A stretch of 63,484 nt of DNA, counting the filler, from Raillietiella orientalis (Eukaryota), in NCBI GenBank assembly GCA_036172245.1. It is 19 parts of 19 records of this genome, joined end to end, with 100 filler letters (N's around TTAATTAATTAA, not from the genome) between each part and the next. Parts side by side here need not be neighbours in the genome. Positions count along the whole stretch, not along the records: positions 1 to 3,472 come from JAYWIR010000368.1; positions 3,573 to 7,033 come from JAYWIR010000369.1; positions 7,134 to 10,572 come from JAYWIR010000370.1; positions 10,673 to 14,075 come from JAYWIR010000371.1; positions 14,176 to 17,551 come from JAYWIR010000372.1; positions 17,652 to 21,017 come from JAYWIR010000373.1; positions 21,118 to 24,478 come from JAYWIR010000374.1; positions 24,579 to 27,935 come from JAYWIR010000375.1; 11 more parts are not named here. One strand, written 5' to 3'. The notes under the pieces were generated by a model. The model was given only the letters and a program-made list of their open reading frames with translations. It did not search any database and was not told where the DNA came from. Shown in pieces: positions 1-63,484 of this stretch (positions within the stretch are counted from its first letter, which is position 1; every line of letters begins with the position of its first letter). Made by a program: the position numbers and the translations under genes.

Positions 1-1390
1 AACTGGCCTTATAGGGGTCTGGCTGCAACGAGGCAGCCAGCTCCTCCGCGGCCCGCGCGAAGGCTACGTCATCGATGGTGGTGTCGATGACGGACGCCGC
101 CGCAGTCTCGCTCCCCTCGCTGTTGACAGAGTCAACAGAGATGTTGTGGTCGGTAGCGGCGAGTTCTCTTCCGCAGCGGTCAGGAATACGCTCTACGGTA
201 ACGCTGCATTCCTTAATTTGCTCGCTTGCCTTCTGTTTTTTCTAGCGGTACGCGAGCTTTTTTTCCAATCTCCTCTCCTTTTTTTTTTTTTTTGCTTTTG
301 CCACCTGCCTCCCAGGCTCCTGGCTACTTCCTCCTACTTGTTTGGCGTTGTTTGCCGGGGTCTCAGGTGCGGTCAGGGCTTTAAGCGCGGGTGGCACAGC
401 CTTCGCGGCAGCTTTCGCCGCCAGCTTTTTCTGCAGCAGCCGGGCGCGTTTTTTAAGGTTTCTCTTGGAAACCACCCGCACTGCTGCTTTTAGGCACACC
501 TCCCTCGTGTGCCCCATTGTGCCGCATACTTGGCACTGCACATTGGGACACCTCTTTTTGAGGTGGCCCGACGTATTGCGGAAGCCACAGTATTTCGACT
601 TCCCCACATACGAGAGGTCGACGGTTTCGCCTTCGACCATAAGTTTGTGGGGAAGGGTGCAGCCCTTCCAAACGGTCACGCGCGCAGCAGTGAGGCCGTG
701 TTGCAGCCCCGTGCAGTTCTCGAAAGGACTAACTTCGGTCCACTGCGCGTGGACCGTTCCGTATTCCTCCAACGCGGCGCGAACCTTTTCCTTGCGCATC
801 CGCGCGGTAACACTTGACAGGTGGACCACCATGCTGCGGTCCGCTGTAGTGGGGAGGAGCCTGCGCGTCCCCATTACAACGGGGGTTTTAAGCAGTCGTT
901 GGGCCAGCTCTACATGCTTTCAGATGACCTCAACGTACTGACCGCCGCTGCGAATGGTCATAGCGCTGAGGTCCTCCTGTTTCACATCGAGTGCGCGCAT
1001 GCCCTTCGAGAAGGCGCGCGCGCTCTCTAAAGAATAAAGATTGCCTACCTTGTTGAACAATGAGGGATTGCAATCCTCCTCTACAGAGGCCGAGAATTGC
1101 GCCGCGGCTGCAGTCGATGGCGCCGACACAACGGCGCTCCACGCCCGCTTTGCAGCGGGGACCGATTCTGTGGGGGCGCATGCATTCACCTCCATCTTCT
1201 CTGAGGGCGGCGTTGTTGCCGCCCCCTAGCTGTCTATCGAATCTGGAAGCGGCGTTTCCGCTGCCCCCTGGCCATCCCTGGTGGTCGCGTCAGGCATCGC
1301 TGCCTGATCAACCACCGAACCACACAACGATTGCACTGGGGGTGACTTCCTGGCACGAGGAGCAGCGAGAAAACACGTCCGCTTTCGAGT
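1..1390 (-). mobile_element. Tx1/L1-like non-LTR retrotransposon, 5' end with disrupted ORF1 (ATG near 1297)
   Basis: ORF1 pieces 920-1195 and 242-874 with zinc knuckles (CQVCGTMGHTREVC); 5' motif GGACGTGTTTTC at 1380-1369; homologous to ORF1 at 17964 and 33765. Confidence 0.88.
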
Positions 1391-1405
1391 GCATAAGGCG
1401 TTTGA
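1391..1405 (+). other. 15-bp target-site copy (RT L-H-K-A-F-D codons) separating two tandem elements
   Basis: g cat aag gcg ttt ga lies between the 5' end of one minus-strand element and the 3' end of another; same register as 3573-3587, 15841-15855 (minus) and 60604-60618. Confidence 0.8.
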
Positions 1406-60603: not shown

Positions 60604-62799
60604 ACGCAAGGCGGTCGACTGCGTAAACCAGAAGCTGCTTTTGGAGCTTATGGAACGCCTAGTGTTCCCGTCGCATCTCCTGCTGTATTTGCGCGAGTGC
60701 TGGCGCCACTCGCTCTGCATCACTTTCAGCGGTTGCCGCGTGTACGGTATTCCCGTGCGTAGGGCATACGACAGGGCGACAGCTTAAGCCCGTTGCTCTA
60801 TAGCATCTTCTTTAAGTTGGAGCTGAGAGCGTGCAGGCTGATTCTGTCTCACTTGCCATGCTGCTCCCCTGGTACGCCCGCCATTGCCGCCTGAGGTGAT
60901 GACCTGCTTCTTCTGCTCACCATGTCCACCCCGGCGTTCAGTTTCGAGGATTTCTTCGACCTGATTCGTCGAGGGGCGGGCGTGAGCCTGAACAGAGAGA
61001 AGAGCGTGTTCGCTCTTGTGGGTGCGTCGTGGGAGGGGCAGTCCGACTGGATCCGCCTGGGGATCCCCACGGGCGGGTACTTTAAGTACCTTGGCGTTCC
61101 GTTGGGCGCTGTCGGGGGAGCCTATGCTAGGGCGGACTGTCTTCAGAAAGCAGAGTTAACCATCAGTCCGTTCATTAACGGCAAGTTTACCCCTCTTGAA
61201 CGGGCGACTATTTGAAACACTTTTGTGGCCCCCCTCCTCCGTCTTCTGTTTTTCGTTTTGGACCCCCCTTATGCGGCGAAACCGCGGTCTAAACCCCTGC
61301 TCAGGAACGCTCTCTGGGGTCCGGCGAGATCCAGGATCCGCGTTAAAAATTTGGTTGCTCCGCGTCGGTATGCTGGTTTAGGTATCCTGACAATGGAGCG
61401 AATCGTCCTGCAGGTGCAGTTCCGACTGCTGGCACTGTGTGCCCAGCTTTGGACATCCGCCCTTTGTGTGCCAGCACGCATTCTCCTGCGGAGATGCGCC
61501 GGCAGCGGAGGATCTCTCTCGCTTTTGGCGGGCACACAATACAGGGAGCGTTGTTTTGGGTTTGCATTGCGGCAGTTGACCGCACTTCTGGAAGTTCATT
61601 CGTAAATCTCCTGCCGCCCAATGAACTTTGAAGCTTGACGGGAGGAGTCTGTTGAATGCTGGTCGGCGTTCCAAGGAATACGCCCTGAATATCTTCGCTG
61701 CCTGCGCCAATTTTTTCCACGATCCTCGGAAGAAGTACTGCAGGACGAGGTGAAGTATTCTACCCTGGCTTCCACGCTTCTTTCCGCAGCGCTTTTATGC
61801 CCTTAGTGCAGGAAACGGCAGTTGCCAACCTGCGAGGTGGGAGGTTTCCTGCACGATAGCGGAAAAAACCAAACTCATTGGCGCCTTTAAGACGAGCGAG
61901 TTGGCGGACCGCGCCACTCCTCGTGTTACTTCAAAGGGACTCCTCCGGAGGGCACAAGAACTTGGTGTCACCCCCGAAGAACTTGTAGTCCCTCCACAGT
62001 GTGTCGACTATTCGCTGCTCCCCCTTGCTTGGAAAGAAGCCCTGTTGCTTCTCGTTCACTGGGGTTTTCAGTGCAACGAGCGTTGGCATCGTGACTCCGG
62101 GGGACTTGCGTCTGCGATCTGCGTTCGGTGCGGATCGACGGAGTCGATTTCGAACCTACTTCTGGACTACGGTGTCTTACAAGAACCGTGGCGCAGACTG
62201 GCAACAGAACTCTCGCATCCCGTGGACACCGCAAGAGACTTGCGGCGACGATTCTTCACGGGGAGCGTTCTGTGTATAAGCGCAAGGATTGCAATCATCG
62301 GTTGCATACGCGCGATAGTTTCCGTCCGCCAGGCGCTGATAGTCAACAAGCAGCACCAAGAGGTGATTGGCAAAGCATCTTTCTATATGGAAGGAGCCGC
62401 CCGATGGCCTCAAGTGACCGAGGATACAATAAGGGATCTCGCTAGCATACGCCGGCGGTTTACAGACGCTACCCAACAGCGCACCCGGTGAACCTTTCCC
62501 CTCGAACCCTTCAAATGTTTTTTTTTTTCCTTTTCCGCCCTATTAGGCTCCGGAACATTTTAGGTGCTCTCTTTTTGAATCCCCGTGAGTACGGAGCTCC
62601 ACCAAATACCCGTTACCCCTCTTTCCAAATTTATATTTTTGTTTGTTTTCCCTCTATTTCCTCATTGTTCTTGGAAGCGGTTTGTAAACCAAGCCTGTGT
62701 GCCGGTAACCTGTCTTTGCTCCTTGTCGTTTCTTTGGTTAGAGACATCGTCTTTGACCGGTTTATTTTTAGTAAACGCACCGGCGTGACTGGGTGAAAA
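60604..62799 (+). mobile_element. Diverged family D element, from RKAVDC to the 3' end; pseudogene
   Basis: RKAVDCVNQKLLLEL, QGDSLSP, KYLGV, CVRCG, stop 62491; degenerate AGTAAA-hairpin-GAAAA at 62770-62799. Confidence 0.88.
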
Positions 62800-63484
62800 A
62801 TTTCAATCTCCGCCTTCTAACATTTGAGCCGGAAACACAAGTGAACGCGATGAACGAGTTGTGCGCCGCCATCCGTGCGCGCAACTTGTTCGCTTATGAG
62901 GGGGGAATGGACCGCAGCATCGAGCACGTCTTCCTTGAAGCTGAAGTGTGTTCACGGGTCGGCAAACGGGGGAGGGTTGCGTCGACGTAGTCGGACCATT
63001 CGCTATTAATTTTCGAGATGCAACCTCGCGAAAAGGGACCGCCATTTAGCGATTGGCGTCTGCAGAGAAACAAAACGCGACTTACAGGTGCGAAGGAACA
63101 CCTTCGGGAATTCCTGAGAGGAGTCACGCTCCAGAGTCTCACGGATTCGGACCTTGTCAAGGCCTCGGTCCGGGAGTTTTGCGAGCAGTTCTCGCTGGAC
63201 CGCCTGCTTCCCGAATTCGGCGAGGGTCCCCGCAACCATGGGGCCTTTTTACAGGCTCGTAGTTACGAGGGAACCCCTAATGTCCGTCGCCTGGCCGAGT
63301 ATAGCGCCGGGGCCGAACGCCAAGCCTTGAAATCCGGGTCGGCCAGCTTGCTGGACGACCAGGGCCGGGAATGTTCGTCCCCGGCGTCGGTACGGCATCT
63401 CGTGCGGAGTTTTTATTCCTCCCTTTACGCCAGGGAGCCCCCGTTTCGGAACGCCTCTCGACGCATGCTTCCGGATGGCGACCC
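62800..63484 (+). mobile_element. Family B-like ORF2 fragment starting at the (G)DFNLR codons
   Basis: FNLRLLTFEPETQVNAMNELCAA, homologous to the starts of the 24584 and 28036 copies. Confidence 0.9.

Follow-up and report, generated by a model that had tools for sequence, protein, structure and literature searches.

Junctions between sibling LINE families of Raillietiella orientalis recur at fixed positions within coding sequences

Several families of the Tx1 clade of long interspersed nuclear elements (LINEs) insert at fixed positions and in fixed orientations within other transposons: Tx1L in the piggyBac-type Tx1D, Tx1-Mar in Mariner-N4_AMi, Tx1-9_AMi in Harbinger, and Tx1-8_Crp and Tx1-4_AMi in long terminal repeat (LTR) retrotransposons (PMC4494074). 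The text of the same paper reports tandem insertions sandwiching a target-site duplication for the Tx1-mobilised SINEU-3, and 5' heads derived from U1 and U2 small nuclear RNA (snRNA) on crocodilian Tx1 families (PMC4494074). Zepp and ZeppL are GC-rich, L1-like LINEs of green algae which insert in their own existing copies and thereby form LINE-only clusters; Zepp arrays are mostly 5'-truncated 3' ends, and the passages on Zepp in these papers describe no fixed site in a coding motif (PMC3446292, PMC8226300). ORF1 of Zepp is described as being without RRM and CCHC domains (PMC5203782). R1/R2 and other LINEs specific for ribosomal DNA (rDNA) or repeats combine a precise site and a defined target-site duplication with a multicopy safe haven (PMC4640811). 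Here we analyse a 63,484-nucleotide (nt) stretch of the Raillietiella orientalis genome assembly (GCA_036172245.1), hereafter called the window, in which LINEs are joined to the coding sequences of related LINEs.

The window consists of 19 contigs of 2.9-3.5 kb each in descending order of length (c1-c19), separated by spacers of N44, TTAATTAATTAA (12 nt) and N44 (e.g. 3473-3572). A preliminary description had proposed a guild of Tx1-like elements inserting site-specifically, mostly in antisense, into conserved coding motifs of their siblings. We confirm that junctions between sibling LINEs lie at fixed positions and are not random, and sequence-specific insertion of LINE families into open reading frames (ORFs) of sibling LINEs is a likely explanation. 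A literature search did not find LINE families targeting coding motifs of sibling LINEs; this search did not extend to Repbase Reports, to Higashiyama 1997 or to the figures and supplements of PMC4494074, any of which could contain such a case.

Insertion junctions and element termini

Pieces of LINE ORF1, endonuclease and reverse transcriptase (RT) were mapped by tblastn and blastn to 13 of the 19 contigs (c1-3, c5-10, c15, c17-19), and families were delimited by all-against-all blastn and codon comparisons. All junction evidence comes from these 13 LINE-bearing short contigs of the window. The last bases of family A (1406, 3588 and 15840) are in all three cases followed by the antisense of ...AAR GCN TTY GA, the K-A-F-D codons of RT motif A, with the junction after KAF-GA. 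Past the A 3' end of c5 the antisense host can be followed over ~1.3 kb, as far back as its endonuclease. The elements of c1 form a tandem pair, a complete 5' end being separated from the A 3' end by just 25 nt of host (1381-1405). A 12-nt A-type 5' end identical to the one in c1 is also present in c19, where it adjoins element E within the RT; the GA position lies exactly 25 nt downstream, and this 25-mer is in frame with the host RT. A-type 5' ends hence lie exactly 25 nt from the A site in 2/2 cases (c1, c19), which points to a 25-bp target-site duplication; since such a duplication recreates the A site, tandem pairs become possible. As an alternative, carriage of the 25-mer by the element itself was considered and rejected, the 25-mers agreeing at 13/25 positions against 12/12 for the adjoining 5' end.

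Family B ends at 14277 (c5) and 21541 (c7), each time followed by the antisense of ...TTY GGN G, codons of RLPxGFG in the endonuclease-RT linker. The c8 flank, one base long, is also compatible with this site. By rough arithmetic a ~6.5-kb element offers ~13,000 choices of position and orientation, and three identical A junctions together with two identical B junctions are far beyond chance. The proposals that sites recur to the base, that they are specific to the donor family (A 3/3 after KAF-GA, B 2/2 after GFG-G) and that they lie within sibling LINE ORFs are thus borne out for A and B. At 15298-15310 in c5, 5'-truncated B (-) and A (+) copies meet head-to-head (~15303-15308), a few nt apart.

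Eleven 3' termini were found in the window, ten of the hairpin type and that of element D in c6. The ten have in common AATAAA, a CCCGG-loop-CCGGG hairpin, which folds in six of the eight 3' ends tested, and a short G/A-rich tail (e.g. GAAAA, GGAAA or GTAAA). Five 5' ends start with GGACGT, followed by a similar T-rich leader (1380, 17761, 34788, 58478, 60593). Sibling LINE coding sequence flanks eight of the nine 3' ends having at least 13 nt of flank, and antisense sibling sequence adjoins four of the five GGACGT 5' ends; the 19-nt flank in c17 (54516-54534) and the 13-nt flank of the c10 5' end (34788) gave no match elsewhere in the window. Identifiable flanks had been said to be of the same clade throughout, which holds for these eight and four, but not for a supposed antisense LINE junction near 48900: it lies at 48946/48947, and its neighbour is a complete U4 snRNA. 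The other junctions listed previously are real, three of them being displaced by 10 nt (1380/1381 instead of 1390, 58478/58479 instead of 58488, 60593/60594 instead of 60603). Seven contig ends (3573, 24579, 27935, 31374, 34801, 54516 and 60582) lie 0-25 nt past an element terminus.

Further junctions were assigned as follows. The family C 3' end at 33686 lies in the antisense ORF1 tail of an element with its own 5' end at 34788. The c6 5' end at 17761 is in the antisense DAKL motif of a family A-like host, and that of c18, at 58478, lies at residue ~454 of the RT, again in antisense, in a host having 79% identity to c2. Element D adjoins the c6 element at 20340 (junction 20339/20340), past GDFNL; c7, c8 and c9 all start within ~10 nt of the GDFN site. 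Two junctions are in sense: the 5' region of element G, from 59667, stands in the same orientation as its host, at the HWGL motif of the latter, and the E 3' end at ~62800 is followed by the F-N codons of a host resembling family B. The antisense preponderance reported earlier amounts to 12 of 14 junctions by our count but shrinks to 7 of 9 when distinct sites are counted, and is then not significant (p = 0.18).

Conserved motif codons had been put forward as the slowly evolving target. Ranking the 15-nt windows ending at each site among 2,833 windows placed the A, B, GDFN and DAKL sites at the 84th, 58th, 61st and 84th percentile; nucleotide conservation is moderate, and two further insertion sites sit in variable ORF1 tails. 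A preference for conserved motif codons is therefore at most a tendency.

The U4 snRNA (48946-48809, minus strand) runs on its 3' side into the 5' region of a c3-like element, and at 48946/48947 its position 1 meets, in antisense, the c15 element at the ORF1 tail. A stretch of 12-20 nt resembling the U4 3' end is present at the left edge of c3 (7134-7167). On the simplest reading of these sequences, the c3-like family probably carries a U4-derived 5' head, seen in two copies only; in that case the 48946/48947 junction would count as a further 5' end lying within a sibling.

Alternative explanations

What is described for Zepp offers the best of the alternatives, namely regional nesting in LINE-rich chromatin (centromeric or heterochromatic islands) with incidental junction positions. 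Every assignable flank is LINE sequence, six sites were seen once only, and for Zepp, insertion into copies already present, with the formation of clusters, has been described (PMC8226300, PMC3446292). Incidental positions do not account for A (3/3) and B (2/2) junctions that are base-identical in diverged hosts, nor for A 5' ends exactly 25 nt away in both cases, and we regard regional nesting as an unlikely explanation.

Somewhat less probable still is common descent, in which a few ancestral composite insertions would have been multiplied by segmental duplication, or a 3' transduced flank carried along, before divergence. Over their first 15 nt the flanks of c1, c2 and the c5 A copy are 73-80% identical, which is similar to the identity of the elements, and the c8 start and the c19 host could stem from one event. 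Past 15 nt, however, the flanks are unrelated, leading to a 5' end in c1 and into more than 1 kb of host in c5. The four host pieces beside A ends show 11-13/25 pairwise matches (10-12/15 for c2), whereas the A elements are 81-86% identical; for c1 and c5, 13/25 matches stand against the 83% expected from the elements (P = 3e-4). This low identity indicates that the pieces are DNA of different hosts, and neither part of the element nor copies of one event. The B inserts of c5 and c7 are 73.6% identical. Host H1 in c5 has 89.1% identity to c2, the uninterrupted copy of family A, whereas the identities of the c7 host to all other copies, H1 among them, are 63-66% (89% vs 66% to c2); the two B hosts share ~65% identity with each other. 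Being from different families, they cannot derive from one ancestral composite and attest independent insertions at a homologous nucleotide, as had been supposed.

An assembly artefact, i.e. the fusion of unrelated repeat fragments by a short-read assembler, is very improbable. The contigs are ~3 kb long and end 0-25 nt from junctions, and the join in c5 is odd. Yet identical junctions are found in separate contigs of differing sequence, and contig ends at junctions are expected from real multi-copy insertions with diverging flanks, where many copies share a terminus and the first target bases and then diverge. Moreover, the junction partners have no common sequence, so that a graph path would need junction-spanning reads. 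Twin priming or template switching within one element, giving inverted segments like L1 5' inversions, is hardly conceivable and was rejected: most junctions do join sense to antisense LINE, but they lie at complete 3' or 5' termini rather than at internal breakpoints, and the arms belong to different families with 52-61% amino-acid identity.

Sequence-specific insertion into sibling LINE ORFs is thus the likely reading, against which several points weigh. The data are 19 short contigs, so that specificity is read within this window alone, and short repeat-rich contigs may over-represent nested elements. The A target tolerates differences at several positions, e.g. GTC for TTC in c19. The GDFN-region junctions (c6 20339/20340, c19 ~62800 and the c8 start) are near one another yet differ by 3-14 nt, and the GDFN codons at which families D and E had been placed do not mark one common base. 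The C, D, E, c6, c18 and G sites each rest on a single example, and the C flank in c17 is unlike the C flank in c10. Finally, simple nested insertion leaves the head-to-head meeting of A and B in c5 unexplained; the 3' ends of the two copies occupy the preferred sites of their families, in two different hosts.

LINE families and the remainder of the window

Apurinic/apyrimidinic endonuclease (APE) domains were detected (PF03372; 57.7 bits in c15 and 41.3 bits in c3, cutoff 24.5), their best solved-structure matches being L1 endonucleases. The RT domain (PF00078, 79.2 bits) matches human LINE-1 ORF2p in PDB with E 3.5e-36, R2 reaching 5e-11 or weaker. PF13966 (zf-RVT), C-terminal to the RT, scored 18.1-27.2 bits in 6 of 11 scanned proteins, in all cases under the cutoff of 27.5. 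A zf-CCHC knuckle is present in the c6 ORF1 (25.3 bits, cutoff 20.8); the c10 ORF1 gave no Pfam match. Judged by the predicted N-terminal endonuclease and RT, the elements are APE-type non-LTR retrotransposons of the L1 group (L1/Tx1). The epithet 'Tx1-like' is supported as far as this L1/Tx1 group, within which the elements may belong to the Tx1 clade proper.

Family A comprises c1, c2 and c5 ~15308-15840 (81-86% identical); family B comprises c8/c9 (95%), c5 14277-15303 (77%) and B' in c7 (77%); family C is present in c10 and c17 (90%) and family E in c19. Further lineages are represented by 5' parts alone (c6, c15, c18 and left of c10), and the c3 family is distant, with ~25% amino-acid identity to the others. 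Between families the amino-acid identity is 52-61% and the ratio of nonsynonymous to synonymous substitution rates (dN/dS) 0.27-0.34; within families dN/dS is 0.33-0.37, except for 0.61 in the near-identical pair c8/c9, and individual copies contain 0-4 stops. Ratios of 0.27-0.37 between and within families indicate that the lineages diverged while active as coding elements. The best explanation is that no fewer than six related families of APE-type LINEs coexist: A, B/B', C, E, the c6/c15/c18 lineages and the divergent, probably U4-headed c3.

Closest in the protein library are P0001 (70%) and P0060 (65%, 132 aa), the remainder being ~30% identical; P0038, also among the closest matches, is an unrelated repetitive model. 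The nearest named proteins are fish RT proteins with 31-34% identity. The 3'-terminus pattern was found at 10 loci in metagenome_contigs, in unrelated context and none with a tblastn match to window proteins, at 10 loci in genome_contigs, titled bacterial genomes or metagenome-assembled genomes, and at 0 loci in viral_contigs, where a protein-profile scan likewise confirmed 0 of 105 candidate stretches.

Table 1. LINE-related features of the window, with hosts and inserts in order of position
Position	Strand	Feature	Remark
26-1380	-	Full-length 5' end (GGACGTGTTTTC...) and ORF1 of the downstream tandem element	Probably family A
1381-1405	.	25-nt host piece, antisense RT motif A (FRVHKAF-GA), between A 3' end and next 5' end	Read as target-site duplication within the tandem pair
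1406-3472	-	Family A copy, RT residue ~352 to 3' end, 4 stops, AATAAA-hairpin-GAAAA end	86.3% to c2
3588-7033	-	Family A copy c2, endonuclease residue ~141 to 3' end, intact 965-codon frame	15-nt flank 3573-3587 is antisense HKAF-GA
7134-10572	+	Divergent c3 family: ORF1, APE endonuclease, RT start	~25% identity to others; left contig edge resembles U4 3' end
14176-14276	+	Host H1, family A-like endonuclease-RT linker, cut after ...GFG-G	89.1% to c2
14277-15303	-	Family B copy, 5'-truncated at RT residue ~703, 3' end at 14277	
15308-15840	+	Family A copy, 5'-truncated at RT residue ~845, 3' end at 15840, head-to-head with B copy	
15841-17118	-	Host H2, decayed sibling, endonuclease to RT motif A, cut after ...TAF-GA	
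17652-17760	-	Family A-like RT host, cut at DAKL motif	87.6% to c2
17761-20339	+	c6 element: full-length 5' end (GGACGTGTTATT...), ORF1 with CCHC knuckle, endonuclease up to GDFNL	
20340-21017	-	Element D, non-coding 3' region ending ...GGGTGAGAGAGGAAA	Orientation suggested by the tail only
21118-21540	+	Host of separate family, GDFN to ...GFG-G	63-66% identical to all others
21541-24478	-	Family B' copy, RT residue ~72 to 3' end	77% to c8/c9
24579-27935	+	Family B copy c8, GDFN region to 3' end; contig starts and stops at junctions	
28036-31374	+	Family B copy c9	95% to c8
31475-33686	+	Family C copy c10, RT residue ~307 to 3' end	
33687-34788	-	Host: full-length 5' end (GGACGTGTTTTG...) and ORF1, ORF1 tail cut by family C	
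48372-48808	-	5' region of c3-like element	71.5% to c3 7168-7490
48809-48946	-	Complete U4 snRNA, probably 5' head of c3-like element	138/138 model positions, 88 bits (Rfam)
48947-51347	+	c15 element: ORF1 tail, endonuclease, RT to residue ~339; meets U4 position 1	
54535-57471	-	Family C copy c17	89.8% to c10; 19-nt flank 54516-54534
57572-58478	-	ORF1-bearing element, full-length 5' end (GGACGTATG...)	
58479-59666	+	Host RT, residues ~454-829	79% to c2
59667-60481	+	Element G 5' region, ORF1-like frame; sense junction	
60582-60593	-	A-type 5' end, 12 nt	12/12 identical to c1
60594-62800	+	Family E copy hosting A insertion; begins 25 nt before KAV-GA site, runs to own 3' end	
62801-63484	+	Family B-like host from F-N codons of GDFN onward; sense junction	86.7% to c8

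Element D contains, at 20560-20800 (-), a ~55-nt unit with GC-rich hairpins in two copies ~100 nt apart and shows no coding similarity. From its sequence, D may be a non-autonomous partner.

The remaining contigs are of other kinds. An rDNA contig, c4 (10704-14059, +), carries 5.8S, the 5' half of 28S and an unusually long, GC-rich internal transcribed spacer 2 of ~800 nt; its GC content is 66.5%. Two contigs (c13 and c16; 41697-44937 and 51448-54415) are wholly 180-bp satellite, with 16-18 copies and 91% matches, and the long open frames in them are a by-product of the repeat. The other three, c11, c12 and c14, are AT-rich DNA. An AT-rich contig holds a 348-codon open frame (47226-48271, +) with several C2H2-like Cys/His pairs and no Pfam match, which could be the N-terminal region of another retroelement. 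Contig c12 contains a long direct repeat, since a stretch of at least 84 nt is found identically at 38793 and at 40383 (-), 1,590 nt apart. By GC content the contigs form two groups, at 38-42% and 52-67%; the window may accordingly hold DNA from more than one genome compartment or organism.

Proposed mechanism and comparison with known systems

Integration would proceed by target-primed reverse transcription at short, family-specific sequences within sibling LINE ORFs. In the window, AAR-GCN-TTY-GA in RT motif A precedes the join of family A to the sense strand of the host, and TTY-GGN-G in the endonuclease-RT linker that of family B; other families use the GDFN region, DAKL, RT residues ~454 and ~829, and ORF1 tails. 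By analogy with Tx1L and R1, specificity presumably resides in the endonuclease of each family. Integration may also be aided by read-through transcript annealing at the nick. A candidate recognition element for the RT is the 3' hairpin, and AATAAA is a putative poly(A) signal. Islands made of LINEs only would be the expected outcome, and short-read assemblies would break at their junctions.

Only tentatively, and with clearly less confidence than sequence-specific insertion as such, do we consider a closed LINE-on-LINE ecosystem. Here at least six sibling families, their endonucleases tuned to different ORF sites including RT motif A and the GDFN codons, might live mainly by mutual hyperparasitism in LINE-only chromosome islands, one member having captured a U4 5' head. 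The destruction of competitors and the antisense transcription units proposed earlier would be hypothetical consequences of such insertions.

Should the pattern hold genome-wide, sibling LINE coding sequence would join multicopy host genes, DNA transposons and LTR transposons on the list of LINE safe havens. The pattern would also provide a natural set of related endonucleases with distinct short targets, useful for studying how APE-type specificity evolves, and account for the formation of LINE-only islands. In practical terms, LINE nests break short-read assemblies precisely at junctions.

The HeT-A, TART and TAHRE elements of Drosophila resemble the LINEs of the window in being a few related telomeric LINE families that land on each other. 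They attach to chromosome ends, unlike the internal, sequence-specific insertion proposed here. R1/R2, as described in the account cited above, share the precise site, the defined target-site duplication and the multicopy target as safe haven; their target is a multicopy gene of the host and here it is another retrotransposon. With Zepp, as portrayed in the passages on it, the R. orientalis elements have in common that they are GC-rich, L1-like LINEs nested in existing copies in LINE-only clusters, and they differ by five full-length 5' ends, cross-family targeting and a CCHC motif in the c6 ORF1. The likeness to the transposon-targeting Tx1 LINEs, in the text of that report, extends to the APE-type endonuclease, the fixed position and orientation in another transposon and tandem copies around a target-site duplication. 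CCHC motifs in ORF1 (here that of c6) are likewise shared with Tx1, and some Tx1 families have an snRNA-derived 5' head, which may be compared with the complete U4 in c15 and the 12-20-nt stretch at the c3 edge, two copies only. Different from the Tx1 systems described there are the targets, which are ORFs of sibling LINEs of the same group, the targeting of families by one another and the 25-bp target-site duplication. Targeting of sibling LINE ORFs is therefore best read as a variation on Tx1-type transposon targeting combined with Zepp-type self-nesting.

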